In this document: piece after piece, positions 9,817-55,064 of the stretch | How positions within the stretch are numbered: the first letter of the stretch is position 1 | Layout: every line of letters begins with the position of its first letter | Origin: a virus | Virus record (IMG/VR): IMGVR_UViG_3300032224_000723 | Coordinates: 32,001-96,000 of that record | DNA length: 64,000 nucleotides | Direction: 5' to 3' (one strand) | The notes under the pieces: generated by a model | The model's input: only the letters and a program-made list of their open reading frames with translations | Database searches by the model: none | What the model was told of the DNA's origin: nothing | Made by a program: the position numbers and the translations under genes

Positions 9817-10650
9817 ATGAATCCATATGAGATTTTGGGTGTTGCTAAAACTGCAACCCCTGAAGAAATTAAAAAAACCTATCGTAAACTAGCTGCTCAG
9901 CATCATCCTGACCGCGGCGGCGACACTGCCAAATTCCAAGAAATACAAGCCGCATACGATACATTGAGTGATCCCGAAAAACGTGCTCAATTAGATAACC
10001 CAGTTCACCAAATGGGGCCAGGACATTTCCACTTTGATTTTGGCAATGGTGACATTAATGATATATTTGCAAGGTTTAATTTTGGCGGTGGTGATCCCTT
10101 TGGACAGTTTAGACAACAGCAACCTAGACGCAATAGAGATGTTAGAGCCGAATTAAATGTAGGCTTGCAAGAAACACTGAATGAAATAACAAAAACTCTA
10201 AATATAAAAACATCAGAATCACAACGACAAAACATCGATGTTAAGATTCCCAGAGGTATTACCAGTGGTACTACAATAAAGTATCCAGGATTGGGCGACA
10301 ACTTATTTGGAAATCTTCCCCCTGGAGACTTGTATCTAACCGTAAATGTATTACAGCACCCAACATATAAAGTCAGCGGATTAGATTTGGTAATGGGCTT
10401 GACAATAGATTGTTTTCAAGCTATACTAGGTTGTGAGCAAACAATCGTAGGATTGGATAATAAAGTATTCACCATACAAACACCGCAAGGTTGTCAACCA
10501 GGAACTAAACTAAAGATACCAGGAGAAGGATTATGGGGATTTCAACAAGATATCAAAGGCAGTCTATTTGTGGAAGTAGCAGTAACAGTTCCTAGAAATT
10601 TAACAGAAGAACAACGACAATTAATTCAAACAATACAAAACCAACGGTAA
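9817..10650 (+). CDS. DnaJ-class co-chaperone (CbpA-like, no Zn finger)
   Basis: J-domain with HPD (HHPDRGGD), G/F region, DnaJ C-terminal domain. Confidence 0.92.
10399..10427 (+). promoter_or_regulatory. Internal sigma70-type promoter upstream of clpA
   Basis: TTGACA-N17-TATACT inside dnaJ. Confidence 0.45.
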
Positions 10651-10658
10651 ATATTTTT

Positions 10659-12935
10659 ATGCTTCAAACAAATCCAGAAATTAACACAATCATTGAAACA
10701 GCTACAGAATGTGCTGCCACTAAGAATCACGAATATGTGACTCTTGAACACTTGTTGTTGGCCATGGTCAACCATCCACCATTTAAACATATTATTGAAC
10801 AATTTGGTGCAGATGCCAGTGGCTTGATTGAAGACTTAGAATCTTATTTAGATCTTCAGACATATTTGATTAGCCAGGGCTATGATATTGTGCCTAAGAA
10901 AACACACAGTTTAGAACGTGTGTTTAATCGTGCATTTACACAAGTACTGTTTAGTGGACGCCAACACATGCAGGTCATTGACTTGTTCCTCAGTATTATG
11001 AGTGAGGAAAAAAGTCATGCAAGATACTATCTTGTCAAATACGGTTTGGAGAGAAAGAAACTTGTTGACTTTTGGAACTCAAATTACACTGAACAAAAAG
11101 AAAAGAAAAAGTCCAAAACTAATGCAGCTGATACAATTCTGCAAGAGTATTGTGAGAATTTAAATGAACTAGCAGAATCAGGAGAAATTGATCCTGTGAT
11201 CGGACGTGAAAACGAAATTGACGAAATTACACAAGTCCTAGCAAAACGCAATAAAAGCAATGTACTAATGGTAGGCGATCCTGGTGTAGGTAAAACTGCC
11301 ATTGCAGAAGGACTTGCACTGAACATTGTCACAGGAGATGTTCCAGACTATCTTAAAGATCACACTGTTTATAATTTAGACATTGGTAGTTTACTTGCTG
11401 GTAGTAAGTACCGTGGAGAGTTTGAAGAAAAACTCAAAGACGTTATCAAAGCATTGAACATCAAAGGCAAGGCTATTTTGTTTATTGATGAAGCACATCA
11501 AATGCGTGGTGCAGGATCAGGCAGTCAAAGCGGTCCAGACTTTGCTAACATGATTAAGCCTGCATTAACTAAAGGACGCATCAAAGTCATTGCCAGCACT
11601 ACATGGGAAGAATACACACAGAGCTTTGAGAAAGATCGTGCGCTGATGCGCCGCTTTTATAGACTTACTGTTGAAGAACCTACTCCTGAAGTAGCAAAAC
11701 AAATTCTACGTGGACTTAAAGATAACTTTGAAGAATTCCATGGTGGAACCATCACAGAAGAAGCTATTGATGCCGCAGTGGATCTTAGTGTACGCTATCA
11801 AACAGATAAGCGGTTGCCCGACAAAGCAATTGACTTGATTGATACTTCGGCAGCACGACTAAAGATTACTACAACAGACTTCGTTGTACGCAAGAGTCAT
11901 ATTATTGATGCTATCAGTAAATTTACAAAGATTCCAGTTGAGCAATTAGACACAGTTGCAGTTAAGAATCTTGAAAATCTAGAAGGTAACATCAAAGGCA
12001 AACTGTACGGACAAGATTCCGCAGTTACCGATGTATTGGATAAAATTTATGTCAGTAGGGCAGGATTAAAATCATTGAACAAACCTGTGGGTAGTTTCTT
12101 GTTCCTTGGACCTACTGGTACTGGTAAGACTGAGTTAGCAAAATTGCTGGCCGAAAATCTCGGGATGAAACTATTAAGATATGATATGAGTGAATACCAA
12201 GAGCGTCATTCAGTTGCAAAATTGATTGGTGCTCCCCCCGGGTATGTAGGTTACGATGATGGTAACTTGGGTGGTGGTTTATTAATTAGTGATGTAGAAA
12301 AGAATCCAAACTGTGTAATACTGTTTGATGAAGTAGAAAAAGCACACCCAGATGTCAGTAATATTCTTCTCAGTCTTATGGATGAAGGTATTGTTACCAG
12401 TAGCAATGGCAAGAAAGCAGACTGCCGCAATGCAGTTGTTATCTTAACTAGTAATTTGGGTGCCGCTGACAATGAACGCAACAGCATCGGTTTTGGTCGT
12501 AGTTTAGAAAAGTCAGGCGAGGATGATAAAGCTGTTAAAGACTTCTTTAAACCCGAGTTCCGAAACAGACTAGATGCTATTATTAAATTCAACAAATTAG
12601 ATCAAACCAGCATCCGTCGTATTGTTGACAAGTTTATTTTAGACATGAACGATTTGATCAGTGACAAACATATTCAAGTTTTGTTAACTGACAAGGCTGC
12701 TGACTATATTATTAGTCAAGGTTATGATAACAAAATGGGCGCAAGGCCACTGGCACGTAAGATTAACGAGTTGATTAAAGTGCCGTTGAGTAAACGTATC
12801 TTATTTGACAACATCACAAACTGTGTGGTCACAGTGGATTACACAGATAAGATTGAATTTGACGTTAAAGAGAATTTTGCTCTCTACGGCAACACTACTA
12901 TGATTGACGAAAACGGCTATGTTGTTGTGGAGTAA
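10659..12935 (+). CDS. clpA: ATP-dependent Clp protease ATP-binding subunit ClpA
   Basis: N-domain HEYVTLEH, two Walker A ([16 protein letters not shown]), IGF loop (SIGFG), no ClpB M-domain. Confidence 0.92.
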
Positions 12936-15214: not shown

Positions 15215-15242
15215 TAAATACTACATTAACTGATTGTAGTAT
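15215..15242 (+). promoter_or_regulatory. Late promoter (TAAATA) with start-codon-masking hairpin
   Basis: TAAATA 15215-15220; ATACTACA (15218-15225) pairs with TGTAGTAT (15235-15242) covering the ATG. Confidence 0.55.
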
Positions 15243-17952
15243 GTTCATTACCGATTTATTTGAAGCAAAAAACACGCCTGTGATAGTAACATATCCAGGA
15301 CGCTTCCAACCCTTTCATCAAGGCCATGCAGGTGTATTTGCTGAACTGCAAAAACTCTTTGGCAAAAATAATGTTTATATCCTAACCAGCAACGATCAAT
15401 CAGGACCTAAGAGTCCTTTTAATTTTGCTGACAAACGTCAACTAATGACGGCTGCGGGTGTTCCTGGAGATCACATTGTACAGACTACTGCAATGTACGC
15501 ACTTCCAGAAGGATTTGACCCACGCAATACTATATTTGTCACAGCAGTGGGCGCACCCGATGCTGATAGACTAAACCCAGACTCAGTACTCAAAAGAGAC
15601 AAAAAAGACAAAGACGGCAATATAATAAAGCCTGCAGGCAGTCCAGGATACTACAAGACTTGGGGTGGTGCGGCTCAAGCAGTCACAGCAGATCAACACG
15701 GATATGTTGTTGTAATTCCTGAAATACACAAAGAAGTTAAAATTAAAGATCGTGTCTACGATGTAAGTCATGGCACAGAATGTCGTAACCTATGGAATAT
15801 GATACGTGGTGATGCTAAAGCCAGGTCAGAATTTTTAAGTCAGTTATATGGTAGACCTGATGCTAAGTTAGGACAAATATTTGACAAGATTCCTGCAGCA
15901 GTAGCAGAAGGTGATCCAGCGACTGCCACAAGAGGAGATCCTCATCCTGAAAATGATTTTTATTTTCCCGTCAAAGATCAATGGCCTGAAAAACTTGGCC
16001 CAATGGGCAAAGTGGCAGAAGATGCACCTCCTGGTGCCAAAGCTGAACGTATGGTCAAGCATATTAAAAAAGGATATGCTCGGGACGGTAAACTAACTGA
16101 CAAAGAAAAATCAATTGCTTTTGCCACAGCATGGAAGGCACACAATGCTGGAAAAGTAGAAGAAACAGATATCAATGCAGTAGTAGACACTAATACAGAT
16201 GCCCGCGGGAAACAAGATACATTAGGACTTAATGTTGGCACAAAAGTGGGCCCAGGTAATGCATCAGTACAACCAATAGCATCAGTTTCCCAAGACTATG
16301 ACCCAACACAAGTAACTGCTGGTGTTAATGCAAATTATGGATTGGATGTGGGCAAGGGCAGTGTCACTGCTGGCGTTACAAGAATGAGGGGCATGCCTAA
16401 CAACCAATTTAATCTACAAGCAAACTATCCAGTGGGCAGTGGCAATTTTAATGCTGGAGTATCTAGCTCCAAAGATCAGCCAAATAATATTAATCTAGGA
16501 TACTCTAATGGTGGATTTAATATTGGTTACAATCAATCTCAAGATGGTAAAAATAAAAATCTAGTAGCCAAATACACAAAGACTTTTGAAGAGTGGAGTC
16601 AAAAGTATAAGAAAAGTATCAACTGTAGTCATCCAAAAGGCTTTAGTCAAAAGGCTCATTGTGCTGGTAAAAAGAAACACAATGAAAGCATTGAAATGGA
16701 AATGACATGCCCTGATTGTGGCATGTGCGAAACACACGGTGATCATTCAAAAAATAAATTAGACGAATTAAAGTGCTGGCCAGGTTATACTAGAGTTCAA
16801 GGTGTACCAGCTGGTGCTCCAGGTAGTTGCAAAAAGAAAAAGAAAACTAACGAAGCAGGATCACCGGCACAACAAGCCGCTATTGCTATTGCAATGAAAA
16901 AAGCTGGCAAGAAACCAAAGCACGTTGACGAAGATGCTGCCGGAGTAGGTGTTGTTGCCACAAATAAGAAAATGGCAAGAGATCCACGTTACTCTACTAG
17001 TATGACAGTAGATGTACATCCAGACACTCCCAAGAAACAACTCAAAGCACTGAAACTTGCTGAAATGAAACCCAGCGACTTTGAAATAAGAAACTTTGAA
17101 AAGCTGGATACTATATTAGCAGAACTATGCCGGCAAGTTATTGCACATCAAAAAAACGATGCCGACTATTGGGGTATGGTGGCTGCTTGTGTTGTTGATC
17201 CCGATGACAACGTAGTACCCGGCATTAATTATTTAGACGATAGCGGCAAGCGTGTTCACGCAGAACGTGCAGCCATTGATTCCTATCGTGAACACTTTGG
17301 CGAAATACCTGAAGGCAGTATCATTGTTACTACACTAAGCCCTTGCTGTCATCCATTGGAAGAACGCTATGGTGAAAGTTGTACTGAACTAATCAACGAC
17401 ACAGACGTACACAAAGTCTATTGTGGATACAAAGATCCTACGCAAGAACAAACAATGAATCGTACATTCCATATAATGCAGACACGTAATGCTAGCATTG
17501 TGGAACTATGTAAATCATTTGCAGATACATTTCTTGGCAAAATAAACGAAGAAACTGAAAACAAACACAGCATTGACGAAGATGAAATGATGGTCATGGT
17601 CCGAGAGTTTTTGCCAGTGGCTATGAAGGATTTAAAGATTAAACGTCTACCACACATTGTGCTACAACCTTATGTAGAAGAACACGATGGACAAGCAACA
17701 TTTGGTAGATTTGTTGATTCTGAAGAACGCATTTATCTGGGCATTGCGGATCGTCATCCTGTGGACATACTACGCACATTAGCACATGAACTAGTACATT
17801 TTAAACAGTACGAAGATGATAAGATGTATCCAGGTGCTGGCCAAACAGGTAGCCCGATTGAAAACGAAGCACACGTTGTAGCAGGCATTATCATGCGTCA
17901 CTTTAATAAAAAGTATCCCATGGCCATTAAGTCCAAACCCCTGGAGTTATAA
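15241..17952 (+). CDS. Mosaic internal-virion-type polyprotein: HxGH nucleotidyltransferase + beta-rich module + short Cys/Lys peptides + Zn deaminase + HEXXH metallopeptidase
   Basis: MFITDLFE N-terminus; PGRFQPFHQGH; HAE...SPCC; AHELVH; modules separated by VAE/VEE/FEE/LDE/VDE/LAE/IDE. Confidence 0.7.
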   Translation: MFITDLFEAKNTPVIVTYPGRFQPFHQGHAGVFAELQKLFGKNNVYILTSNDQSGPKSPFNFADKRQLMTAAGVPGDHIVQTTAMYALPEGFDPRNTIFVTAVGAPDADRLNPDSVLKRDKKDKDGNIIKPAGSPGYYKTWGGAAQAVTADQHGYVVVIPEIHKEVKIKDRVYDVSHGTECRNLWNMIRGDAKARSEFLSQLYGRPDAKLGQIFDKIPAAVAEGDPATATRGDPHPENDFYFPVKDQWPEKLGPMGKVAEDAPPGAKAERMVKHIKKGYARDGKLTDKEKSIAFATAWKAHNAGKVEETDINAVVDTNTDARGKQDTLGLNVGTKVGPGNASVQPIASVSQDYDPTQVTAGVNANYGLDVGKGSVTAGVTRMRGMPNNQFNLQANYPVGSGNFNAGVSSSKDQPNNINLGYSNGGFNIGYNQSQDGKNKNLVAKYTKTFEEWSQKYKKSINCSHPKGFSQKAHCAGKKKHNESIEMEMTCPDCGMCETHGDHSKNKLDELKCWPGYTRVQGVPAGAPGSCKKKKKTNEAGSPAQQAAIAIAMKKAGKKPKHVDEDAAGVGVVATNKKMARDPRYSTSMTVDVHPDTPKKQLKALKLAEMKPSDFEIRNFEKLDTILAELCRQVIAHQKNDADYWGMVAACVVDPDDNVVPGINYLDDSGKRVHAERAAIDSYREHFGEIPEGSIIVTTLSPCCHPLEERYGESCTELINDTDVHKVYCGYKDPTQEQTMNRTFHIMQTRNASIVELCKSFADTFLGKINEETENKHSIDEDEMMVMVREFLPVAMKDLKIKRLPHIVLQPYVEEHDGQATFGRFVDSEERIYLGIADRHPVDILRTLAHELVHFKQYEDDKMYPGAGQTGSPIENEAHVVAGIIMRHFNKKYPMAIKSKPLEL

Positions 17953-19466
17953 TGCGAGCACATGAGTTTATAACAGAAGCCAAAACAACCCGAGAAGATT
18001 TTGAGGGCATGACCATTGAGATGGTTAAGAATGGTCATGTATTAGTGATCAATGCGCTTGATGATTGGGGCAATAACGTATTGGGTTCTGTTGCTTTTAA
18101 CATTGGCGATGACAATGAACTAGATCCGCAAGACTTAAAAGTTGATGAAAGATATCAAGGTCAAGGTATTGCTAAAATAATGTATGATTATGCAAAAAGC
18201 AAAGGCTACGAGATTCATCGTAGCTATGACCAGACTGATGCAGGCAAGGGTTTTTGGGACAAGCATCGCGGAGAAGATGTTCGTGTTTGGGAAGCCTTTA
18301 ACCGACCTTATAAAGGTAAATGGGAAAAGAGTGAATATAGTGGTAGTGTTGATGTATTAACCAAGTTGCCTGACGGAACACATTTGAGTATTATGTTCAA
18401 TGATGAAGGTGATGGAGAATATCAAGTTGAATTTCATAGAAACAATAGTCAATCAGTTACTGGCGAAGGTGACGCTCAACGAATATTTGCCACAGTATTA
18501 GCAGCCATACAAACATTCATTAAAAAATACAAACCCTGGCGTTTAACATTCTCTGCAAGTAAAGAAATAGACATGGACGCAGATTATGACCAGGCACGAT
18601 TTAATCCAGAAAGTCGTGCTAAGTTATACAACAGAATGGTACAGCGTTATGCAAGAGCATGGGGTTATGAGGATTATGCTGAGGATCATGGCGACCAAAT
18701 CACATATGAACTTACACAATTAAAGCAAGGTGCAGTAAAAGAAGATGTTCGTGTTTGGGAAGGCAAACAAACTGTTACTGAATACAGAGATAGGATGTAT
18801 CAATATCTCAAGAGTATTGTTCCAAATTGGCCAGACTATATTGTAAAAGATTGGTTATATGCCAACTTTGCCAAAGGACCAACACAAACCGCCAACTGGA
18901 GTTTTGAAACTATAGGAAAAGATATTCCTGTTATGTTAAAGGACATGGGACTAAGCGTTAACACCAATTGGCAACTTGTACCTAATATGAAGTTTACGAT
19001 GAACATGTGGGAACCAAAAACTTTAAAACGCCTACAAGCCAGAGCAGGTGGTAATACTAAAAGTGCGGACCCTATGGTACATATACCTGCCAATGATGCC
19101 GAACGTCATGCCACACAGGCTGCACTTGCAAAGCAACAAGGCGGTGTGCGTAATGAGCCTGTTATCTTAATGAAAACTGCACAAGGTTATGAATTGCTTG
19201 AAGGCTGGCATAGAACTATACAACATTTTGCTATGTATCCACAAGGTTATACTGGTCCAGCTTATGTAGCAGTAGCTGGTGCTGTACAAGAAAACTTTGC
19301 CGACGGACGTAATCCACAAGACAAAGGCGATAGCAAACGCTATCATGTACCTACTAAAAGCAGTGTCAGCAACTTACGCAAATTTGCTAAAAGTCACAGT
19401 GGACGTGCGGCACAGTTAGCACATTGGGCCGCAAATATGAAAGCTGGCAGGGCTAAAAAGAAATGA
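17952..19466 (+). CDS. Mosaic polyprotein: GNAT acetyltransferase + unknown module + ParB/Srx-like module + basic tail
   Basis: MRAHEFITE N-terminus; VDERYQGQGIA and AGKGFW (GNAT); EPVIL...LLEGWHR (ParB-like). Confidence 0.7.
   Translation: MRAHEFITEAKTTREDFEGMTIEMVKNGHVLVINALDDWGNNVLGSVAFNIGDDNELDPQDLKVDERYQGQGIAKIMYDYAKSKGYEIHRSYDQTDAGKGFWDKHRGEDVRVWEAFNRPYKGKWEKSEYSGSVDVLTKLPDGTHLSIMFNDEGDGEYQVEFHRNNSQSVTGEGDAQRIFATVLAAIQTFIKKYKPWRLTFSASKEIDMDADYDQARFNPESRAKLYNRMVQRYARAWGYEDYAEDHGDQITYELTQLKQGAVKEDVRVWEGKQTVTEYRDRMYQYLKSIVPNWPDYIVKDWLYANFAKGPTQTANWSFETIGKDIPVMLKDMGLSVNTNWQLVPNMKFTMNMWEPKTLKRLQARAGGNTKSADPMVHIPANDAERHATQAALAKQQGGVRNEPVILMKTAQGYELLEGWHRTIQHFAMYPQGYTGPAYVAVAGAVQENFADGRNPQDKGDSKRYHVPTKSSVSNLRKFAKSHSGRAAQLAHWAANMKAGRAKKK
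18272..18762 (+). repeat. 23-bp direct repeat AGAAGATGTTCGTGTTTGGGAAG (18272-18294, 18740-18762) flanking an in-frame module
   Basis: Identical copies 468 bp apart, both encoding EDVRVWE. Confidence 0.9.
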
Positions 19467-19999
19467 AACTTGTTGAGTTTAGTCCACTGACTTTGCCGGG
19501 TAGTTTCCATCGCGGATTAGTGTTCAACAAGTTATGGCTAATACACGAATTAGAAAAAATACAAAATAGTTTTAGTACAATCTACATACTGGGATCATGG
19601 TATGGAAACATGAGTATTTTACTGGCACGAAGTTCCATTGAATTTGACCATATAGTCAACGTAGACACTGATAAACAAGCAATGGTTACTGGGCAACGGA
19701 TAGCTCAACACATGGGCATTGATGATAAAATTGAGCCAATGGTCAAAGATGCTAATGCGTTAGACTATAGACAATTAGATTCTGATGGATTGGTAATAAA
19801 TTGTAGTTGCCATGACATGACCAATCAAGGCTGGTTTGATAATATTCCCCAGGGAGTTATGGTAGCATTACAAAGTAGAGACGATGTCAATGACGATTTA
19901 ACTGATTACGCATTGAGTCAAACACTGTTTGAAGGCACCAAGCAATTACGTGATCCAGAAACAGAATATACTAGCATATTAAAAATAGGTATAAAATGA
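19463..19999 (+). CDS. Class I SAM-dependent methyltransferase-like protein
   Basis: ILGSWYG motif I variant, acidic NVDTD, INCSC. Confidence 0.6.
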   Translation: MKLVEFSPLTLPGSFHRGLVFNKLWLIHELEKIQNSFSTIYILGSWYGNMSILLARSSIEFDHIVNVDTDKQAMVTGQRIAQHMGIDDKIEPMVKDANALDYRQLDSDGLVINCSCHDMTNQGWFDNIPQGVMVALQSRDDVNDDLTDYALSQTLFEGTKQLRDPETEYTSILKIGIK

Positions 20000-20298
20000 A
20001 CGAAGTAAAAATTACAGCAGATATCTACTGCGATCACAATTTTAGACCACTTGAGTTTGCTACAGATGGGGAAAAGTCCTATAGAGTATATGTAAACGAC
20101 GACTTAATAACAGAACGCACATATATTTGGCATAATAACGAATACTTTGTGCGGGAAAACATTGTAGTTAGGTTACCTGCAGGCGAACACAAATTTAAAG
20201 TAGTACCGGCGTATCCATTCTTTAATGTATTTTTCTTTAAAAACTTTACAGTAAATGATCAGTTACAACTTTATGATGGCCAATTCCATATAGACTAA
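19996..20298 (+). CDS. Hypothetical phage protein
   Basis: ORF with ATGA overlap. Confidence 0.6.
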   Translation: MNEVKITADIYCDHNFRPLEFATDGEKSYRVYVNDDLITERTYIWHNNEYFVRENIVVRLPAGEHKFKVVPAYPFFNVFFFKNFTVNDQLQLYDGQFHID

Positions 20299-20324
20299 TA
20301 AATATAACATATTGAGGATTTCAC

Positions 20325-21317
20325 ATGAAAAGCTACGATTTTTTAACTGAAGGCATTGTCGAAGACGCACACGAAATGCACCAGGATCACGAAGTACAAA
20401 TGGCACGTAAGGACTGCTACCAAGCCGCAGAAAATGCTATTGCACTACACAAACTACTGCGTCACGTCAGTGAAAATCAAGGCATTGAGGGATGGGTAGC
20501 TGCTAAAATTACATTGGCCAGCGACTACTTGAACACAGTGCGTGAATACTTGGAATACGAACTAATGAATCAGCACAGCGAGCCAATGGCCGGTGCTCCT
20601 GTTAGTGTTGAGTTTCCTATTGCCGAAAGTCGTCAGATAGACGAAAGCAAAATGAAGGATCTAGACTTAGATTTAAAAAAGCCTCCAGTGGGCATGACAG
20701 ATCAAGCGTTTAAGAAAAAATACAACATGACCAAAGCAGAAGCTAATTCTAAGTTTTCTGCTAAAAAAGAAGTTGAAGAAGGCGTCATTGGTAAAAAGAA
20801 GCCTAAAGCAGATAGTTACCACATTGTTGGCAAAGATGGCAAGCCAGTAAACCTAGCTAGTTATAATGACCGTGCAAGTGCTGAAAAGGATCGTGACGAA
20901 AAACATCCTGGTGCTAAAGTACAACAAGTTGGCGCAAGAGGTAAAGTTAAAGGTGTTACAGAAAATGTTGATGCCAATACAATTTGGAATCAATATGGTC
21001 ATTACTCTAAGGATGACTTAATGCAGGAATTCCCACAATTAAGTCCTAAAGATGCACAGACTATTGTTAACTTTGCTGAATATGGTTGGACAAATATGCC
21101 TAACCGTCAAGAGTATAGAGATGAAGTAATAAAGAGAGTACTACATGCTATGAGCGGACGACAAGGTGTTTCAGAAATGAGCGCAGGTAGTGTTGCTACT
21201 GTGGTCAATCCTACACCTAAGAACAAAGCAAAAGTAGGTACACTGTTTGGTGGCACTTATCAAAGAGAAGAAGCAGATACTCCTTCTAAAAAAAGAATGT
21301 TTAATAAAAAGGCCTAA
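20325..21317 (+). CDS. Mosaic internal-virion-type polyprotein
   Basis: MKSYDFLTE N-terminus; junctions IVE, IAE, IDE, VEE, GVTE, QGVSE; TAAATA 20299-20304 and GAGG RBS. Confidence 0.65.
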   Translation: MKSYDFLTEGIVEDAHEMHQDHEVQMARKDCYQAAENAIALHKLLRHVSENQGIEGWVAAKITLASDYLNTVREYLEYELMNQHSEPMAGAPVSVEFPIAESRQIDESKMKDLDLDLKKPPVGMTDQAFKKKYNMTKAEANSKFSAKKEVEEGVIGKKKPKADSYHIVGKDGKPVNLASYNDRASAEKDRDEKHPGAKVQQVGARGKVKGVTENVDANTIWNQYGHYSKDDLMQEFPQLSPKDAQTIVNFAEYGWTNMPNRQEYRDEVIKRVLHAMSGRQGVSEMSAGSVATVVNPTPKNKAKVGTLFGGTYQREEADTPSKKRMFNKKA

Positions 21318-21320
21318 GCT

Positions 21321-22790
21321 ATGAGCGACCTACGCCAACTAATTGCAAAAATGGACCAAATCGAATCGGGTTCATTGCCAAAGAAGAAAAAAACTATTAA
21401 AGAAGATGCTGCTATTCCTGTGTCATCGGGCGGCGATATTATTGGTGGTATAAAATCACTGGGGCCTAAAGTAGCTAAAAAAGTTGTCCCTGCATTGGGT
21501 TTCGTTGATGCTGGAATGAGAGCACACGAAGGTGATTACACTGGTGCGGCTATAGGCACTTTGGGCGGCATTACTGGCGCAATACCACATCCGATAGCAC
21601 AAGGTATATCATTGAGTGCAGATGCTGTAAATCAATTACGTGACTACGCCAAGGAAAAAGGCGGATGGGGCGAAGTAGCCAAAGAAATTAGTCAGTCAAT
21701 GAAAAGCCATGATGATAATAATTTTCTTCCTGAAAATTTAGAAACATTAGACGAAGAAGGACTACGTAGTTGGTTAGCTAAAAAAGGTATTAGTGCTGCT
21801 GAATATTTAAAAAATTTAGTTAAGCCTGCAGAAAAAGAAATTGCTGATGTAAGTGCTGCCCGCCCAACTGATATTTCTGGAATCGGTTCTGATGTTCCTG
21901 GCACGATAAGAGTTGGTACTCCAGCAAAACCACCCGAAGTTCCTTCAGCAGCCACAACTACAAAATCACTGGATCAACGTGCCCAAGCTGCGAGCGAGAT
22001 AAATGCAAAATTAGATACGTTACCAAAACCTAAAATAAATGCTAAAGATTATCAAGCACAATTAGCAAAACAACAAGAACTAGAAAAACAATTAAAAGAT
22101 CCAAGACCCGCAGTATGGAAAGATCCAAGAAATCCTGAATTGCCAGCGTCAAAATCTCCCCCAGCGGCAAATGTGGAACCTCCACAACCATTGAATGGTA
22201 AATCATTTAAAGATGCTTCAGCAGAAGTTAATAAAACCACCGGGCCTAAAGTAAATAGAGATGAGTTAGGAAGACCGTTGGACAATCAAGGTCGAAACAC
22301 CACAACCTTAGGTGGTGAGCCTATTACCTATGATGCAGCCGGTAATCCTAGCATTGGCACTACGCCTAAATCTAATTTTAATAGACCAAGTTCAGCTAGA
22401 GGTGACACAGAAATGGGTCCTGAAATAGATCCTAATGCACCACCTGAATGGTTTCAACAATGGCAGGCAAACCAGCAAGCCCAGCAATTACCCCAACCGC
22501 CGGTAGATGCAGACAAGCCGGGTATATTGAAATCAATTGGCAAAGCAATGTGGAATAATCCAAAAACAACTGCCGCAGTTGCCACTGGGGCAGAGTACGA
22601 AAGAGAAAAAAATGCTAACTGGAAAGGTGCTAAAGCAGCTGGTCAACTTGCACACCCAGATGATGATTTTTGGTCATATCAAAATCAAATAAAAGACTTT
22701 GGTGTTAAACCAGAACTAAAAACTCCTACCAAAGAATCATTACAAAATAAATTGTTTAACGAATTTAAAACATTTGTAGAAAAGAAATAA
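21321..22790 (+). CDS. Large Pro-rich, probably virion-associated protein
   Basis: MSDLRQLIAKMDQIE start; IKE, LDE, FVE sites; Gly-rich hydrophobic segment. Confidence 0.55.
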   Translation: MSDLRQLIAKMDQIESGSLPKKKKTIKEDAAIPVSSGGDIIGGIKSLGPKVAKKVVPALGFVDAGMRAHEGDYTGAAIGTLGGITGAIPHPIAQGISLSADAVNQLRDYAKEKGGWGEVAKEISQSMKSHDDNNFLPENLETLDEEGLRSWLAKKGISAAEYLKNLVKPAEKEIADVSAARPTDISGIGSDVPGTIRVGTPAKPPEVPSAATTTKSLDQRAQAASEINAKLDTLPKPKINAKDYQAQLAKQQELEKQLKDPRPAVWKDPRNPELPASKSPPAANVEPPQPLNGKSFKDASAEVNKTTGPKVNRDELGRPLDNQGRNTTTLGGEPITYDAAGNPSIGTTPKSNFNRPSSARGDTEMGPEIDPNAPPEWFQQWQANQQAQQLPQPPVDADKPGILKSIGKAMWNNPKTTAAVATGAEYEREKNANWKGAKAAGQLAHPDDDFWSYQNQIKDFGVKPELKTPTKESLQNKLFNEFKTFVEKK

Positions 22791-22791
22791 C

Positions 22792-24873
22792 ATGAGTGAT
22801 ATGCGCCGACTACTAGAAGCCATGGACAGCATGAGTCGTGCTGAGAAGAAACCCACAGGTCCAAAATTTCCAGGTTACTGGAAAGGTACAGATCCTGCCA
22901 GTGCTGCTAAAAATAAAATGGTTGGCGGCTGTGAGCAAGAAAGTGTTATTCCCGAACTAGCAAAAACAGCAAAGAAGAAATCTACAGAATGGGAATTAGA
23001 AGAAGCATTCAAACAATTTAAAGAAGGCGAATTTAGACGAGACGTTATCCCCCAACAACAAGCACCAGTGAATACTAAATTAGATCCAGGATATGGAAAG
23101 CCTTTAGATAGACTTCCTGATCCTCAAGGAGATCAAAGCGGCGGATTTAAGAAAGTACTGCCCGGTGAAAAATTTGATAAAGACCAATGGTCTCTGCCAG
23201 GTAAACCTAGCGGTACTCCTAATTTGCCAGTTAGTCCTGATGTCAATACCCCATTATATACACCGCCGTATGCAGGTGATCCAGGTCTGGGAGTAAAAGT
23301 TCCCACTGATAGATTTGATGTCATTGGTGATGGGCCCACCTATGCACAAGGAATCAGACCTCCTTATCAAGCCAGATATAAACCTGGCAAAGAACCTGTA
23401 GAATTAAAAACAACAGAACCGCCAGTTTCAGTAGCTGGTCCAGAGCAAGAAAAATTTGATGTTAAGACTAATTCAATTAAAGTTAATCCAGCAACTGGTA
23501 ATGTTACTAAACAAGATAAACCTGAATTTGCTGGTCCCACAGATACATTTATCAAAGATAAGAATGGCAAGTGGGTAGAGAATCCAAAATACTCAAAGCC
23601 TAATACAGATATTAGTCCAGAAGAAAATGCTGAAATTGATCAACAAATAAAACAACAGCAACAAGTACAGCAACCACCGGAAGTTAAACCTGCCCCAGAA
23701 GTTAAATCAGTATCCACTACTGGTTCAGATACACTAAGAACTAATATAAACAAAGCCAGTAGCGGAAGTGACAACTCTGCCGTTAAAACTGGAACCTCTT
23801 CTCCCACACAAACTGAGCCAGAACCTCGACCAGGTAGCTGGCAAGAACTTGCAAAACTGAATAATATCACTGATCCTACTAAATTACGTGCAGGACAAAC
23901 AATTAGATTGCCGGACGACAGTAATTATACCATAAGTCCAAATGATACACTTAGTGGCATTGCTCACTCCTTGCGTACTACTGGTCAGCCACCAGGACAA
24001 CTAAAAAGCCAAAAAACTACGCAAGCTGATCGAGATCAAACTCCACCGTCCGATGGGACAGCAAAATCTGTAACTACTACACCAGTATATGTGGGTGGTA
24101 AGGCTAAAAGAAAAGCAGCGACTATTACAACACCAGAGATTAATTATTCACGAGACCCTGATGTCATGTCTGATCCAACTGCACCAGAAACTAAAGGATA
24201 TCAACGTAGTCCAGAACAAAAAGCCGCAGATGCGGCTGCACTAGCCGCGGCAGAACGAGCAGAAAGAGCACGACAAAAACTAAGATCGAACTTGCCGCAA
24301 TCAAAAAACAAACCAAAACCTCAAATCGCTGTTCCTGAATCATTCAGTCAACGACTAGCCAAAGACTTCGAACAGTTTTTAGAATCAGACGAGCCTTATT
24401 CGGGTTACGATCAAGATGTTAAAAAATTAAAACAACGTGCCAAGTTAGGCCCGATGAAAACTGTATGGGATGAGAAAACACAGAGATATCGTGTAGTACC
24501 AGTTAAGCCACAGGAAAAACAAATTAAAGAATATGGTAATGCACAAGACGCTAACCAACAAGCTACTAATGCCAACCAACAACAAACATCGCAAACAGGT
24601 GACCAAAAAGCCATAGACCAACAAGTAGACATTGCCACTGCTAAGTCAACAATGTCTGGCTTAAAAAATGTTCTTGGTCCACAACTTAATACCAATGCTG
24701 CTGCCAGTGGTGTTGTAAAAATGAATGACGGGAAACCTTTATCAGTACCAGAACGTGAAGCGATAAGTACACTAACACCATTGGTATCAAAAGCAGCAGA
24801 AAATCCTGCTACCGCCAGTGCATTAAAGTCAGCGTTAAGTACAGCAGGTATGTTGGCCAAGCAAGGAAAATAA
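22792..24873 (+). CDS. Large low-complexity virion-type protein with LysM-like segment
   Basis: MSDMRRLLE start; LAKLNNITDPTKLRAGQTIRLP and YTISPNDTLSGIA. Confidence 0.6.
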   Translation: MSDMRRLLEAMDSMSRAEKKPTGPKFPGYWKGTDPASAAKNKMVGGCEQESVIPELAKTAKKKSTEWELEEAFKQFKEGEFRRDVIPQQQAPVNTKLDPGYGKPLDRLPDPQGDQSGGFKKVLPGEKFDKDQWSLPGKPSGTPNLPVSPDVNTPLYTPPYAGDPGLGVKVPTDRFDVIGDGPTYAQGIRPPYQARYKPGKEPVELKTTEPPVSVAGPEQEKFDVKTNSIKVNPATGNVTKQDKPEFAGPTDTFIKDKNGKWVENPKYSKPNTDISPEENAEIDQQIKQQQQVQQPPEVKPAPEVKSVSTTGSDTLRTNINKASSGSDNSAVKTGTSSPTQTEPEPRPGSWQELAKLNNITDPTKLRAGQTIRLPDDSNYTISPNDTLSGIAHSLRTTGQPPGQLKSQKTTQADRDQTPPSDGTAKSVTTTPVYVGGKAKRKAATITTPEINYSRDPDVMSDPTAPETKGYQRSPEQKAADAAALAAAERAERARQKLRSNLPQSKNKPKPQIAVPESFSQRLAKDFEQFLESDEPYSGYDQDVKKLKQRAKLGPMKTVWDEKTQRYRVVPVKPQEKQIKEYGNAQDANQQATNANQQQTSQTGDQKAIDQQVDIATAKSTMSGLKNVLGPQLNTNAAASGVVKMNDGKPLSVPEREAISTLTPLVSKAAENPATASALKSALSTAGMLAKQGK

Positions 24874-24874
24874 A

Positions 24875-27262
24875 ATGAATTTACATAGTTTGTTTGAAAA
24901 TGTAGCAGAAGAAAAATGTCCGCATTGCAATGGGCCAATGTTCAGTGAACTAATGATCAATGAAAAGAAAGATGCTTGCTACTACAAAGTCAAGAGTCGT
25001 TATAAAGTATGGCCCAGTGCTTATGCCAGTGGTGCATTAGTTAAGTGTCGCAAAAAAGGCGCAGACAGTTGGGGCAATAAATCGGAAAGCGTGGCGGAAG
25101 CCACAGGTGATGAGAAGTTTGATACCATGATGGGCAGGATACAGCAAGAACCAAAGTATCCTGATTCACAAATGCCTCCAACAGATGTAAAAGATCTGTA
25201 TCAATGGGCAGTCAAAAACAACAAGCCGTATCATAAAATTTTTGCTGAATGGGCCATGAGAGAGGGTTACAAGTCTGTTGCCCCGGCATTACAGAAAGCG
25301 GGTAATTTAGATAGTGACGCTTTAGATTATTGGACTCCACGTGTTTGGAAAATATATTGGGGCGAAGTCCGGGGTATTGATTCAGAAATGCCCCCAGAAT
25401 GGGCCAAAAAACGTATACCTGCGGAATTGAGATATTATCTTGATGATGTGTTTGATGCTTATGATCGTATAGTGTTTGATTGGCCCACAGAATATCGTCA
25501 GATTGGTCAGCAAGGCATGGCGGAAGGTTTAGATAAACCTGAAGAAAAATCTATGTATGATTATCGTGGTGTTCCTGGTTTAGATAAACCTGAAGAAAAA
25601 TCTATGTATGATTATCGTGGTGTTCCTGGTTTAGATAAACCTGAAGAAAAATCTATGTATGATTATCGTGGTGTTCCTGGTTTAGACGAAGGCATGAAAG
25701 CCGATGAGCTTTCACGCTACTGTGAAGAACTTGTGGCAGAAAAAGGCTGGGATGCCGCATACAAACATGCTAGATTTATGGCACAAGGTGCTACAGATCC
25801 TGCCTGGGGCAGTGTATTAAAATATCTTCATGCCATGAAAGACGGAGTATCAGAAGATCAACTAGACGAAAATTTACGTCAGTGGTTCAAAGAAAAATGG
25901 GTACGATTTGGTCCAGACGGAAAGATTCGCGGAGACTGTGCCAGAGGAGATGACAGCGAAGGTAAGCCAAAATGTTTGCCTCAAGCCAAAGCACACGCAC
26001 TGGGTAAAAAAGGTCGTGCCAGTGCTGCCGCAAGAAAACGCAGAGAAGATCCCAATCCTGAACGCCGCGGCCCTGCACACAATGTTGCTACAAAATCTGA
26101 AAGCTCGTTAAACGAATTTGCGCCAGGCAGTGATGACGGCAACGATGGATTCAGTGATGAAATACTAAAGCGTTTAGCCGCACAATGGTGGCAAGGTGAC
26201 GAAGATCCAAGAGTAGAACGCACACTAGCGGCCGCTGGTTGGGAAATTGGGCAAGACGAAGGCTATGACAACGGTGGTGTATTTGTTGTAATGTCCGGTG
26301 ATGAGCATGGCCGCAGTTACATGAGCTGGCCCGCAGAAGAGTTGGAAGGCTTGTCGGAAGGCTACTACAATGACATAGGTCCGGAATACGGTGGTGCTGG
26401 CAAGGGTCGTTCCGAAGATGCAATGATGACTACCAAACTTACTAGACAAGCAAAAGCTGCCGCCAAAAAAGCTGGCAAAACATTTAATACCAGTGCTGAA
26501 TATCGTTTGTGGCATAGGAAACAAAAAGAAAAACAAGGTGTGTCGGAAGCACAAACTGATTATCAAAAGCGCCGTCAACGTGAACGTGATGTAGATGCAG
26601 GTAAGCCAGTTAAACGTCAACCAAAGAATCCACAGAATGATTATTTTGCACGTCGTAAAAAAGAACGAGACTTAGCAGAAGACCAAGCTGTACAACTATC
26701 ACCTAATATATCAGCAAGACCAAATCAAGATCCTGACTCGCCCGAAGACTATGACTACTTTTATAAAGACATGCAGGTAATGCCCGGGCAAGATTTTCAC
26801 ACACAGATAAAAGATCAACATCTACGTCAAATGGATCCTGCATATAATACTATGCGAACAGCATTTGATAACCCTATTAAGCCAGGACCGACTACAACTT
26901 ACAAAGAACCTAAGGGCGACACAATAATCCCAGTGCGTCCGCAAGAGCCAGAAAAAATGAAGGACATAGAAGGCAATCCTGTTAGACTAAGAGATTATGT
27001 TCCCGGTGATCCAAGGATATCAGAGTCTCGCTTATACTATAATGTCATAGGCACAGCAGATAAAGAACTACGTTCAGCCTTTGGTATGAGAAAAGATAAA
27101 AACGGTTGGTTCTTAAAAGAATCCAGCAGTACAAAATATAAAATGATGGCGCAACGTGCATTTGGTAGTCCTAAGTTGCAGGAATATAATTTTCCTGCAG
27201 GGCAAGCTACTAAAGGCAGTGAAGGTGTAATCAGTCCTGTTGGCTCTATCCCACGTAATTAA
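24875..27262 (+). CDS. Mosaic internal-virion-type polyprotein (about 10 or more modules)
   Basis: MNLHSLFE start; junctions VAE, INE, SVAE, QGMAE, LDE, GVSE, LNE, GLSE, QGVSE, LAE, ISE, LQE. Confidence 0.65.
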   Translation: MNLHSLFENVAEEKCPHCNGPMFSELMINEKKDACYYKVKSRYKVWPSAYASGALVKCRKKGADSWGNKSESVAEATGDEKFDTMMGRIQQEPKYPDSQMPPTDVKDLYQWAVKNNKPYHKIFAEWAMREGYKSVAPALQKAGNLDSDALDYWTPRVWKIYWGEVRGIDSEMPPEWAKKRIPAELRYYLDDVFDAYDRIVFDWPTEYRQIGQQGMAEGLDKPEEKSMYDYRGVPGLDKPEEKSMYDYRGVPGLDKPEEKSMYDYRGVPGLDEGMKADELSRYCEELVAEKGWDAAYKHARFMAQGATDPAWGSVLKYLHAMKDGVSEDQLDENLRQWFKEKWVRFGPDGKIRGDCARGDDSEGKPKCLPQAKAHALGKKGRASAAARKRREDPNPERRGPAHNVATKSESSLNEFAPGSDDGNDGFSDEILKRLAAQWWQGDEDPRVERTLAAAGWEIGQDEGYDNGGVFVVMSGDEHGRSYMSWPAEELEGLSEGYYNDIGPEYGGAGKGRSEDAMMTTKLTRQAKAAAKKAGKTFNTSAEYRLWHRKQKEKQGVSEAQTDYQKRRQRERDVDAGKPVKRQPKNPQNDYFARRKKERDLAEDQAVQLSPNISARPNQDPDSPEDYDYFYKDMQVMPGQDFHTQIKDQHLRQMDPAYNTMRTAFDNPIKPGPTTTYKEPKGDTIIPVRPQEPEKMKDIEGNPVRLRDYVPGDPRISESRLYYNVIGTADKELRSAFGMRKDKNGWFLKESSSTKYKMMAQRAFGSPKLQEYNFPAGQATKGSEGVISPVGSIPRN
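25526..25686 (+). repeat. Perfect 51-bp tandem repeat x3 (+8 bp) encoding GLDKPEEKSMYDYRGVP
   Basis: Units 25526-25576, 25577-25627, 25628-25678. Confidence 0.95.
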
Positions 27263-31056: not shown

Positions 31057-31343
31057 ACGATATATTAAATGGTGTCTTTAACTGGATCAGAGAAGATTAC
31101 AAAAGCAATAGAATTCGTTTTTGTCTTGAGGTCCTTGCTTGGGCTATTTCTATTGGCTGTAGTATCACTATGGCACTCACCGTTCCAACACCACCTCTCC
31201 TCTATATGTACCCAGTGTGGATCACTGGTTGTGCTATATATGCTGGGTGTGCTTATAGTCGGCGTTCCTTTGGTATGCTTGCTAATTACATTCTTCTTAC
31301 CACAATCGACACAATCGGATTAATAAGGATGCTTATTGCATGA
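31053..31343 (+). CDS. Small 3-TM membrane protein
   Basis: Hydrophobic segments; overlaps both neighbours. Confidence 0.6.
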   Translation: MNDILNGVFNWIREDYKSNRIRFCLEVLAWAISIGCSITMALTVPTPPLLYMYPVWITGCAIYAGCAYSRRSFGMLANYILLTTIDTIGLIRMLIA

Positions 31344-54546: not shown

Positions 54547-55064
54547 TTGAAATGAAAGAATTTTTTGAATTAGTAGGATACAAAATTACCGAGGGCAGTG
54601 ACTATGGGTGGGAATGTTACGGTCCTAATAGCCATAGGCTTAGTGCGTGGAATGGAAAACACAGTGACGGTGGATGGAGTGCTGATATTGTGTTCAGTAC
54701 TAAAAGCCAAAAAGTCTATGAAGTAACAGTATGTGATATGGCTAACGATCGTGCTTACCGTATGATTAATCCCAAGTTTTTGGACAAGCATAACAAAGAA
54801 GCCGAACGGCGATCAGTGTCAGCTAATCAAGCGTGGGATGATATCAACTACACTGACCTTGAAGTGGACTCCGACTTTTTAGAAAAAGCTCGGGCTATTA
54901 TAGCAGGACAAGACTATGACACTCGTGTACAAATTGAAGTTGATTTTTCAGATGAAGAATTGCTACACTATATGAAAATTGCACACGAACGTGACATAAC
55001 ATTCAATCAACTAATCGAAGAAAGTCTACGTCATGTTATCAAGGAACACGGTGTAGAAGTTTGA
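54543..55064 (+). CDS. Hypothetical phage protein (possible C-terminal RHH)
   Basis: ORF; AHERDITFNQLI tail. Confidence 0.6.
   Translation: MIEMKEFFELVGYKITEGSDYGWECYGPNSHRLSAWNGKHSDGGWSADIVFSTKSQKVYEVTVCDMANDRAYRMINPKFLDKHNKEAERRSVSANQAWDDINYTDLEVDSDFLEKARAIIAGQDYDTRVQIEVDFSDEELLHYMKIAHERDITFNQLIEESLRHVIKEHGVEV

Follow-up and report, generated by a model that had tools for sequence, protein, structure and literature searches.

Do the long open reading frames at positions 15241 to 27262 of the window (the whole 64,000-nucleotide stretch analysed) encode chains of cargo proteins that a single N-terminal tag carries into the phage head, where they are cut apart? An earlier note, made from the sequence alone, had proposed this for six genes, here called PP1 to PP6, and all six were confirmed in position, N-terminus and plus strand (Table 1). 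The source is an uncultured giant (jumbo) phage related to T4; no near-identical DNA was found in the phage collection. As far as sequence can speak to the question, it is fairly likely that PP1, PP2, PP3 and PP6 are made as precursors of internal head proteins, which would be packed, cut and delivered with the DNA; PP5 probably belongs with them.

Table 1 Features of the PP locus, in window coordinates
Feature	Positions	Strand	Description	Basis or further data
Late-promoter-like core	15215..15220	+	TAAATA, 26 nt upstream of PP1	
PP1	15241..17952	+	903-aa putative tagged polyprotein, ~9 modules	ORF, site count, module map via relatives
PP1 tag	15241..15264	+	Capsid-targeting-type, 8 aa, end L-F-E	Rank 3/202 ORFs, independent tag profile
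PP1 nucleotidyltransferase	15265..15909	+	Cytidylyltransferase-like, end V-A-E at aa 223	Pfam PF01467, E 7.4e-6
PP1 aa 261-308	16021..16164	+	DUF6321-type small basic peptide	Matches cyanophage DUF6321 genes
PP1 aa 309-451	16165..16593	+	Gly/Asn-rich beta-type segment, end F-E-E	
PP1 aa 452-509, 510-564	16594..16932	+	Two Cys-rich basic peptides	62 partners
PP1 aa 609-770	17065..17550	+	Cytidine/dCMP-type deaminase	Pfam PF00383, E 1.7e-9
PP1 aa 771-903	17551..17949	+	Mini-zincin metallopeptidase-like	HExxH + downstream Glu
PP2	17952..19466	+	504-aa putative tagged polyprotein, 4 modules	ORF, tag, borders aa 114, 270, 447
PP2 aa 10-114	17979..18293	+	GNAT acetyltransferase	Pfam Acetyltransf_1, 21.5 bits (cut-off 20.7)
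PP2 direct repeat, copy 1	18272..18294	+	23 bp, perfect, at joint	Codes 7 residues ending V-W-E
PP2 156-aa module	18294..18761	+	Between the 23-bp repeats	Weak DUF6934-like match
PP2 direct repeat, copy 2	18740..18762	+	23 bp	
PP2 aa 271-447	18762..19292	+	Module with ParB/Srx-like motif	Motif by eye only
PP2 aa 448-504	19293..19463	+	C-terminal basic peptide, net +11	
Two small ORFs	19463..20298	+	178 and 100 aa, without module structure	PP1/PP2 operon
Late-promoter-like core	20299..20304	+	TAAATA, 26 nt upstream of PP3	
PP3	20325..21317	+	330-aa tagged protein	ORF, tag, site count
PP4	21321..22790	+	489 aa, low complexity, Gly-rich hydrophobic stretch	Different N-terminus
PP5	22792..24873	+	693 aa, Pro/Gln-rich, LysM	First 9 aa end L-L-E
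PP6	24875..27262	+	795-aa putative tagged polyprotein, ~11 modules	
PP6 module A, aa 13-75	24911..25099	+	Cys-rich basic peptide, end V-A-E	77 partners
Joint-coding DNA word	25086..25100	+		Variants 25512-25526, 26346-26360, 26535-26549
PP6 module B, aa 76-217	25100..25525	+	Helical	65-89% identical, 56 partners; motif upstream 56/56
PP6 tandem repeats	25526..25686	+	Three perfect 51-bp repeats, 17-aa unit	Form module aa 218-272
PP6 module C, aa 333-414	25871..26116	+	Basic, 2 Cys	73 partners; phrog_23735
PP6 module D, aa 415-495	26117..26359	+	Acidic, net -14	Motif upstream 28/28 partners
PP6 modules E, E', F, aa 496-558, 559-602, 603-717	26360..27025	+		HSP borders 558, 602, 717
PP6 module G, aa 718-795	27026..27259	+	Conserved end module	C-terminal in 37/43 partners

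The N-terminal leaders of PP1, PP2, PP3 and PP6 match those of T4 ipI, ipII and ipIII (compared with NC_000866). The PP3 tag is the nearest in the window to that of ipII/III, and the PP2 tag is nearly identical both to ipII/III and to the tags of relatives. Their determinants agree with the published positions of the T4 capsid-targeting sequence (CTS), in which residues 4 and 7 serve targeting and residues 8 and 10 processing (PMC9026906). In published T4 CTS data, exchange of the P1 Glu for Asp blocks cleavage. When a tag profile trained on unrelated metagenome proteins only was run over the 202 ORFs of the contig, PP6, PP3 and PP1 took the top three ranks and PP2 the sixth. The same tag classes recur on metagenome homologues, among the matches listed (of 4353). 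Tag and module chain thus stand for four of the six proteins to which they had been ascribed. They do not for PP4 and PP5, which are of low complexity, begin differently and contain few [LIVMF]xE sites: the PP5 leader fits a T4-type tag in part, and that of PP4, ending Q-I-E, does not match the motif. It could be argued that these are ordinary cytoplasmic multi-domain proteins whose likeness to tagged and jointed cargo is due to chance, as a loose [LIVMF]xE is frequent in the first 16 residues (29 of 189 other ORFs) and the genes lie among replication genes, outside any head cluster; the T4 ip genes are likewise located away from the head cluster (NC_000866). Against this stand the ranking by tag profile, the recurrence of the tag classes and the Glu-specific enrichment at module borders given below, and we regard a chance likeness as extremely improbable.

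Within the chains, [LIVMF]xE was counted against 1000 shuffles per protein. PP1 holds 21 sites against 12.4 expected (0/1000 shuffles reach 21), PP6 holds 20 against 11.5 (2/1000) and PP3 11 against 6.0 (24/1000). Over the whole proteins PP2, PP4 and PP5 the motif was not enriched against shuffles, PP4 having 5 sites where 6.1 were expected. At the borders of homology, the ends of high-scoring segment pairs (HSPs) in related IMG/VR loci fall on the motif 84 times against 27.4 expected (3.1-fold), and the ends of homology blocks in 120 metagenome homologues 465 times against 160 (2.9-fold); both counts come from related sequences and are therefore not independent events. Joints could also have been inherited along with their modules. 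The control motifs [LIVMF]xD/Q/K/N and [AGST]xE gave 0.6-1.5-fold at the borders, which is no enrichment; for [AGST]xE the range was 1.1-1.5-fold, so that the borders do not follow the (S/A/G)-x-E rule of phiKZ-type phages. A site precedes the module start by no more than three residues in 56/56 partners of PP6 module B, 71/73 of module C, 28/28 of module D, 59/62 of the PP1 Cys-rich peptides and 9/9 of the DUF6321-type module. The proposal that module borders fall on hydrophobic-x-Glu above chance is thus borne out, about threefold in two independent sets of relatives and specifically for Glu at P1.

The joints have the consensus E/Q-G-[VLMI]-[AS]-E, followed by G or A. The predicted joints of PP6 include those at aa 75, 217, 327, 414, 495, 558, 602 and 717. 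A joint profile trained on PP6 relatives over-fits and, at the 99th percentile, fails to detect the joints of PP1 and PP2; with a shorter, independent profile, 10 joints of PP6 lie above the 95th percentile against 3.2 expected. In a single-sequence AF2 model of PP6, too poor to count (pLDDT 45), 8 of the 9 joints proposed separate one modelled element from the next. Several motif sites fall within folded enzyme domains, and not all can be cut.

The module map of PP1 was drawn from its relatives. Stand-alone genes of 272 aa (L008/L011) align to aa 15-216 of the nucleotidyltransferase, an HSP from L027 stops exactly at aa 308, behind the DUF6321-type module, and the border at aa 451 is set by 20+ HSP starts at 449-450. 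The segment between these two borders has a porin-like match as its sole Pfam hit, a weak one (E 0.027). The Cys-rich peptides follow an N-terminal tag immediately in 8 partners and are internal in 54. The deaminase keeps a Met directly after L-A-E, and residue 1 of the stand-alone deaminase genes (164-218 aa; L006/L018) aligns to PP1 aa 609. This last observation favours a reading in which the chains are uncut "polyvalent" proteins, packaged or merely late, and the joints are fossil N-terminal tags, remaining from separate tagged genes that fused time and again. The cyanophage cytidylyltransferase and DUF6321, which are nearby separate genes, also suggest fusion or fission. However, the internal joints are unlike complete tags: they retain the processing positions (P5-P1) only, lack the targeting positions and have a strong consensus of their own. 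That consensus is kept across unrelated module pairs, even in codons, where fossils would decay. Fossil tags in uncut chains are therefore an unlikely explanation.

In the zincin-like module at the end of PP1, H-E-x-x-H and the Glu are invariant in 10 sequences. Its AF2 model (pLDDT 84) finds abylysin, selecase, Wss1 and IrrE as best PDB folds, weakly (E 9e-3). PDB sequence searches with the zincin-like and ParB-like modules gave nothing significant, and for PP2 aa 271-447 neither Pfam nor PDB sequence searches returned a match; a block of this module is 66% identical within the relative P0004. The 156-aa module of PP2 is found in different order in L012, L018 and L010, and the C-terminal peptide of PP2 follows the N-terminal tag directly in L023_10699 and L025_13719 and is internal elsewhere.

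Chains of this composition recall the polyvalent proteins of phages and conjugative elements, which carry 2-15 unrelated conflict-type domains per chain (GNAT, ParB-like, zincin MPTase, nucleotide-modifying enzymes) and for which Iyer, Burroughs, Anand, de Souza and Aravind (2017) predicted capsid packaging, proteolytic release and delivery, by analogy with viral polyproteins (PMC5512222). The idea pursued here is consequently not wholly new, as capsid-packaged multi-domain proteins released by proteolysis have already been proposed (PMC5512222). At least two unrelated conflict-type domains, as in polyvalent proteins, are present in PP1 (nucleotidyltransferase, deaminase and zincin-like) and PP2 (GNAT and others), and the chains of relatives also hold ParB_N, MTase, Pol-beta NTase and GH19/LysM. 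The PP chains differ in that the prohead protease is expected to free the modules at a fixed joint and in that most modules are tiny peptides, not enzymes, whereas for polyvalent proteins embedded peptidases are invoked and tag or joint grammar is not described (PMC5512222); according to Iyer et al., T4 Alt-type proteins do not occur in genuine polyvalent proteins (PMC5512222). Could an embedded peptidase, the PP1 mini-zincin, cut these chains instead of the prohead protease? Such autoprocessing was proposed by Iyer et al. (PMC5512222), and the invariant residues and predicted zincin-like fold of aa 771-903 are consistent with it. But the zincin is found in PP1 only and not in PP2, PP3 or PP6, and relatives encode it as a separate cargo gene of 128-194 aa with a tag of its own. 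Moreover, the rule at the joints, with a hydrophobic P3 and Glu at P1, equals that of the tag end and of T4 gp21, and is common also to the scaffold and gp23 propeptide of the relative G001. Cleavage by the zincin is, in our view, very improbable.

A prohead protease of the gp21 type remains the preferred agent. Neither PF03420 nor head genes were found on the contig itself, which is 45% complete; the protease was therefore sought in relatives, and the cognate enzyme is known from relatives only. Two relatives, G001 and G002, are syntenic with the contig (DNA polymerase 76% and 64% identical), and both encode a Peptidase_S77 above the curated cut-off. The gene order in G001 is portal, gp21, gp22-like and gp23; its gp21-type protease gene lies at L037:9301-9936, and the product is 36% identical to T4 gp21. 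The gp22-like scaffold of G001 carries 27 sites (15.6 expected), and residues 1-42 of its gp23 contain 4. The parallel in T4 is a gp22 with 23 sites against 12.8 and a gp23 with L-T-E at residue 65.

PP6 has 4353 database relatives (E <= 1e-5), which share single modules only. Module C stands directly behind the tag in 7 of its partners, module D is N-terminal, after the tag, in P0010-type proteins, and the protein atlas was uninformative on the function of module B. In the relative P0047 the PP3 start is fused to PP6 modules. PP5 has a LysM match (E 5.8e-8), and its first module is internal in L008_16469, behind a G-M-S-E joint. PP4 has no homologues among related loci, and neither in PP4 nor in PP5 was module shuffling detectable with the relatives' loci and the joint profile. 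Altogether, at least six module families occur directly behind the tag in some proteins and behind an internal joint in others.

What the pieces would do is a separate question. Many measure 44-82 aa with a net charge of +4 to +11, like the T4 internal proteins, which are basic and whose lysines contact DNA (PMC3012670), and the most widespread modules carry no enzyme signature. Both facts would suit chains that are packaged and cut to supply head assembly or DNA condensation (core, scaffold, counter-ions) and not host action. Such a restricted role seems rather unlikely to us: deaminase, GNAT, nucleotidyltransferase and zincin modules all occur in the chains, those of relatives also include ParB_N, methyltransferase, GH19 and LysM, and this is the set of activities ascribed to conflict proteins that are injected (PMC5512222). 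Condensation and host action can coexist.

The joints are also where the chains have been rearranged. P0004 is 87-93% identical to PP6 in the shared modules, diverges right after aa 75, and has inserts at PP6 aa 558 and 602; the one at aa 558 brings in PP2-type modules totalling ~430 aa, flanked on each side by a copy of the joint. In G001 the PP2 modules are permuted relative to PP2. The orthologues are thus not collinear; modules are gained, lost and reordered exactly at joints, as the earlier note had anticipated. The DNA retains traces in the perfect 23-bp repeat flanking one PP2 module and the three perfect 51-bp repeats of PP6. In relatives, a 12-nt joint word with rare codons occurs 26 times on the coding strand and 0 times on the opposite strand. 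More tentatively, the joint might serve a dual purpose: the protein would be cut there by the prohead protease, and the DNA, through the conserved in-frame 12-nt word GGTGTGGCGGAA with its rare codons, would offer a mobile site for recombination. If so, a coding segment lying between two GGTGTGGCGGAA words would become loaded and released cargo, whichever tagged gene and whichever phage of the group it had entered, and much of the aquatic T4-like phages would share a natural plug-in system for cloning capsid cargo.

The favoured mechanism, precursors cut by the prohead protease, would run as follows. The chains would be synthesized late, from two operons, and the T4-CTS-type tag of 8-9 residues would bring each entire chain into the prohead core. 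There a gp21-type protease is predicted to strip the tag and cut after Glu at the conserved joints, freeing ~35 pieces. Among these would be a nucleotidyltransferase, a deaminase, a GNAT, a mini-zincin and a ParB-like module, many others being small, basic and often Cys-rich. The pieces should remain with the DNA and would be expected to enter the host alongside it. We propose that any in-frame module with a joint on either side is packaged and set free, and that the locus therefore evolves as modules are inserted, lost or reordered at joints.

Among known systems, the T4 internal proteins and the polyvalent proteins stand closest to the PP chains. T4 IPI, IPII, IPIII and Alt (CTS and gp21) share with the PP chains an N-terminal tag of ~10 residues ending hydrophobic-x-Glu, a T4-family prohead protease (for the PP chains, in relatives), a hypervariable gene set and basic products. 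Unlike the PP chains, the T4 proteins are single and small, with one cut that removes the tag (Alt has one cut per end), whereas the PP chains have one tag before up to ~11 unrelated modules, conserved joints and enzymes within the chains. In phiKZ, 201phi2-1 and SPN3US, many head-internal proteins are likewise cut after Glu by a gp21-related S80 protease, with multiple cuts per precursor (PMC5694885, PMC10052503). There, however, the motif is (S/A/G)-x-E, propeptides exceed 100 residues and the multiple cuts are reported within the propeptide (PMC5694885, PMC10052503), whereas PP tags measure 8-9 aa and the predicted cuts would part functional modules. For presence in virions, T4-GC119 offers a proxy: this protein, annotated as hypothetical or structural only, was detected in purified cyanophage virions with 13 peptide counts (row 119, Table S8; Sullivan et al. 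2010, PMC3037559). Like the PP chains it combines modules, namely A and C of PP6 together with CW-x-GY peptides, with V-x-E-type sites between them, and its length is highly variable among phages. Unlike them, the two copies examined have no clear T4-type tag. We found no published account of the modular, joint-punctuated build of T4-GC119, and no prior description in the literature on CTS-tagged polyproteins, DUF6321 and cyanophage CTS.

If the mechanism is correct, T4-type phages load long, re-assortable chains of enzymes and peptides by means of one tag and have the head protease unpack them, and their cargo goes beyond the tagging of single internal proteins. A function would follow for thousands of unnamed metagenome proteins, the relatives of PP6 alone being so numerous, and for many small conserved cyanophage ORFs (DUF6321, DUF5872-type). 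The known repertoire of potentially host-injected factors would grow, and tag plus joint would amount to a natural design rule for placing several foreign proteins in one phage head. Cultured cyanomyoviruses allow the cargo-polyprotein idea to be tested directly; in the T4-like cyanophage P-TIM68, for instance, the 373-aa gene that follows gp23 (L005:991-2112) encodes a tagged chain of modules.

The PP genes had also been called late. The full T4 late promoter TATAAATA occurs once in the window and at none of the PP genes, and the shorter core TAAATA was scored in its place. On the contig, 22 genes have this core between -22 and -30, tail and baseplate genes included, with a clear positional peak, and the PP1 and PP3 operons have the same core as the tail genes. 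Late expression of the PP genes is therefore suggested in weaker form, by the promoter-like TAAATA found 26 nt upstream of PP1 and PP3. For the two small ORFs between PP2 and PP3, family searches assigned no family; the 178-aa ORF begins with a short tag-like M-K-L-V-E.

All six large open reading frames that the earlier note had described are present, tightly packed on the + strand (table). The source IMG/VR virus contig, of which the window takes up bases 32001-96000, spans 156,993 bp and is 45% complete (CheckV). It carries tail and baseplate genes, as well as a family-B DNA polymerase at 31340-34003 whose nearest counterparts belong to jumbo T4-related phages, with 52% for Sinorhizobium phage Phosso and 47% for Agrobacterium phage Atu_ph07, and with Vibrio 2.275.O and the large E. 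coli phages among them. Neither head genes nor a Peptidase_S77 gene was found on this 45%-complete contig, and no near DNA match to the block was found in the phage collection. A few genes upstream, at 9817-12935, lie a DnaJ-domain ORF and a 758-aa ClpA/B-like AAA+ protein (phrog_4871 match, E 6e-245); these neighboring chaperone genes may or may not be linked to the locus.

Large ORFs of the putative polyprotein block
ORF	Position	Strand	Length (aa)
PP1	15241-17952	+	903
PP2	17952-19466	+	504
PP3	20325-21317	+	330
PP4	21321-22790	+	489
PP5	22792-24873	+	693
PP6	24875-27262	+	795

These genes had been read as encoding cargo polyproteins, in which shuffled modules are separated by prohead-protease sites. 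The sequence-level pattern is real and strongly non-random in four of the six proteins (PP1, PP2, PP3 and PP6); it does not extend to PP4, whose leader gives no fit to the motif, or to PP5, which like PP4 has few sites. Judged entirely by sequence comparison, a polyprotein is, on balance, the explanation we favor for these sequences. A single N-terminal tag, akin to the T4 capsid targeting sequence (CTS), would serve the whole chain, and the prohead protease would cut at internal joints, the hydrophobic-x-E sites between modules. Such a system would be widespread and is readily testable.

Compared with 1000 shuffles, PP1 (21 sites vs 12.4 expected), PP3 (11 vs 6.0) and PP6 (20 vs 11.5) carry an excess of [LIVMF]xE; PP2, PP4 and PP5 do not. 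Searches of cultured phages (tblastn) with PP1 and PP6 return only short pieces, 5–22% of the query and mostly from T4-like cyanophages, where the counterparts either stand alone as small genes or belong to other module chains. Scanning IMG/VR yielded 28 related loci, whose ORFs share single PP1, PP2, PP3 or PP6 modules in other orders and combinations. Module borders do fall on hydrophobic-x-E beyond chance, with specificity for Glu. In the IMG/VR loci, where a border was counted as at the motif within -2 to +1, homology-block ends coincide with [LIVMF]xE in 84 cases against 27.4 expected (3.1x); for starts the excess is 2.5x, and control motifs (D/Q/K/N at P1; A/G/S/T at P3) stay at 0.65–1.3. 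An independent set of 120 metagenome proteins gives 465 vs 160 (2.9x) and 580 vs 210 (2.8x), with controls at 0.6–1.5. The 120 proteins are the best of 4353 PP6 matches, and each shares only 8–44% of the PP6 length, at 60–90% identity. Taken per module, 56/56, 71/73, 28/28, 59/62, 9/9, 7/7 and 6/6 partners carry the motif no more than three residues ahead of the point where the module begins. All these counts take in related sequences and overstate the independent events, an effect that leaves the specificity for Glu and a hydrophobic P3 untouched. The joint logo reads E/Q at P5, G at P4, V>L>M>I at P3, A at P2, E at P1 and G/A at P1'.

The leader of the T4 internal proteins ipII and ipIII, as read from NC_000866, is MKTYQEFIAE followed by Ala; the related ipI leader has 19 residues. 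PP2 and PP3 start with nearly the same sequence, one residue shorter, whereas PP1 and PP6 carry a shorter D/S-L-F-E form. Tags of relatives cover every intermediate, one of them departing from T4 at only three positions. A loose [LIVMF]xE near the N-terminus is common (29/189 ORFs). A tag profile trained solely on unrelated metagenome proteins ranks PP6, PP3 and PP1 first to third among 202 ORFs, and PP2 sixth. PP5 begins with 9 residues ending in L-L-E, and the module next to this leader is internal in L008_16469, from a related locus, behind a G-M-S-E joint. Fifth in the profile is a 173-aa ORF at 54543-55064 with an N-terminus ending F-F-E at residue 9, which may encode another head-targeted protein, outside the block. 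Two further N-terminal classes recur on module chains of metagenome PP6 homologues (P0014-P0114), M-S-N/S/K-I-L-K/Q-G... and M-N-I/L-x-E/Q-L-x-S-F/Y-x-L-x-D-A, and may be alternative targeting leaders.

Mutagenesis of the CTS assigned targeting to residues 4 and 7 and processing to residues 8 and 10 (PMC9026906). The Cys-rich module of PP1 (aa 452-509) stands behind an internal F-E-E in PP1 and directly behind the N-terminal tag in at least seven relatives. The basic tail of PP2 (aa 448-504), PP6 modules A, C and D, and the peptide after PP1 aa 538 likewise occur in both settings. Internal joints thus retain the processing positions of the tag and drop its targeting positions, in agreement with what a one-tag polyprotein predicts. 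The PP1 deaminase module begins with Met right after L-A-E and is a separate gene in two related loci (L006 and L018).

Orthologues are not collinear, and modules are gained and lost at joints, a check that the earlier note had proposed. The metagenome homologue P0004 shares modules with PP6 at 87–93% identity, and immediately past V-A-E at aa 75 the two diverge completely; in the position of PP6 aa 558, P0004 contains ~430 residues of PP2-type modules (ParB-like, GNAT, ParB_N) flanked by two joint copies, and a further insert follows PP6 aa 602. In G001, a syntenic genome whose DNA polymerase is 76% identical to that of the contig and lies just downstream of the PP genes, as here, the PP2 modules are reordered and the PP1 deaminase and Cys modules are swapped. 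Within the block, a perfect 23-bp direct repeat (18272, 18740) flanks a 156-codon module of PP2, and three perfect 51-bp tandem repeats (17-aa unit; 25526-25686) lie between two joints of PP6. The database protein P0003 (522 aa), identical to PP6 aa 274-795, has its start at the Met immediately behind the array; gene calls or variants thus differ at this point. In cyanophages S-WAM2 and Sf-CH11 (L003, L004), cytidylyltransferase, CW-x-GY module and DUF6321 genes stand in a row, close to a 'structural/head protein' gene, in the order of the corresponding modules inside PP1; this shared order suggests that a whole gene row was fused or split.

Conservation of the joint extends to its DNA. Relatives encode Val by GTG in 31/34 cases, and Ala by GCG in 32/41, at G-[VLMI]-[AS]-E sites, compared with 16% and 6%, respectively, elsewhere in the same genes. 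In 336 kb (23 loci among L006-L033), the coding strand contains 26 copies of the 12-nt word GGTGTGGCGGAA, which is written in rare codons, and the opposite strand contains none; its variants in the window fall only at four PP6 joints (25086-25100, 25512-25526, 26346-26360 and 26535-26549). This codon-level conservation exceeds the needs of the protein. It suggests that joints have spread through recombination or conversion, or that they have some role as RNA; the word may serve as a site of recombination or make translation pause.

Peptidase_S77, the family of the T4 prohead protease gp21, is found in the syntenic genomes G001 (96 bits) and G002 (93 bits; cut-off 27). The G001 gene order is that of T4: portal, small core proteins, gp21, gp22-like scaffold and capsid protein gp23. 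In G001, the scaffold contains 27 sites against 15.6 expected (0/500 shuffles) and gp21 12 against 4.7; four sites fall within the first 42 residues of gp23, and a 303-aa acidic neighbor begins with a tag-like leader. The picture is the same in T4, where gp22 has 23 sites vs 12.8 expected, gp24 has L-R-E at 10, and L-T-E at 65 in gp23 agrees with the published propeptide of 65 residues, cut after Glu (PMC5694885). The cyanophage protein T4-GC119, encoded between gp16 and gp17 in S-P4 and ACG-2014a, is a chain of PP6-type modules with V-x-E sites between them. Table S8 of Sullivan et al. 2010 (PMC3037559) records it from purified particles, at 13 peptide counts, which would count, by proxy, as virion evidence for such chains.

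PP1 and PP3 each have TAAATA 26 nt ahead of their start, the same distance as at tail, fibre and baseplate genes. Of the 52 TAAATA copies within the 120-nt upstream regions of 202 ORFs, 38 are located from -36 to -10. These positions suggest two late operons, PP1-PP2 with two small ORFs, and PP3-PP6. Contig-wide, 22 gene starts have TAAATA at -22 to -30, among them those of fibre-like genes that lie upstream of the window and of the 144-aa DNA-binding protein gene at 27288; the sites give a usable late-promoter map for the source phage.

The proposed mechanism, CTS plus gp21, matches that of T4 internal proteins (PMC3012670, PMC7697877, PMC9026906), and the chain architecture is that of polyvalent proteins, for which capsid packaging and release by embedded peptidases were predicted and a polyprotein analogy was drawn (Iyer et al., PMC5512222). 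Our literature search found no paper combining one T4-type tag with prohead-protease joints between shuffled modules. The phiKZ-type inner-body proteins differ in their cleavage motif, which is not enriched at borders here.

Cuts at the homology-supported joints would give about 35 pieces: enzymes of 105–215 aa, many peptides of 44–82 aa whose net charge is +4 to +11 (2–5 Cys in several of them), and a few strongly acidic pieces. Pfam finds few domains in the block, namely cytidylyltransferase-like and dCMP-type deaminase in PP1, GNAT in PP2 and LysM in PP5; PP2 aa 271-447 is putatively ParB-like by a motif seen only by eye. An HExxH plus Glu is invariant in PP1 aa 771-903, for which a minimal-zincin-like fold is predicted (pLDDT 84), with abylysin, selecase, Wss1 and IrrE as best PDB folds at weak E-values. 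PP1 aa 309-451 (16165-16593), a segment of beta type rich in Gly and Asn, gives a weak porin-like match in Pfam (E 0.027), and the aromatic residue just before its joint recalls an outer-membrane beta-barrel end signal. In 37 of 43 partner proteins, the chain ends C-terminally with the module of PP6 aa 718-795 (27026-27259); this conserved 'last module' may have a role of its own, such as anchoring or serving as a C-terminal propeptide like that of T4 Alt.
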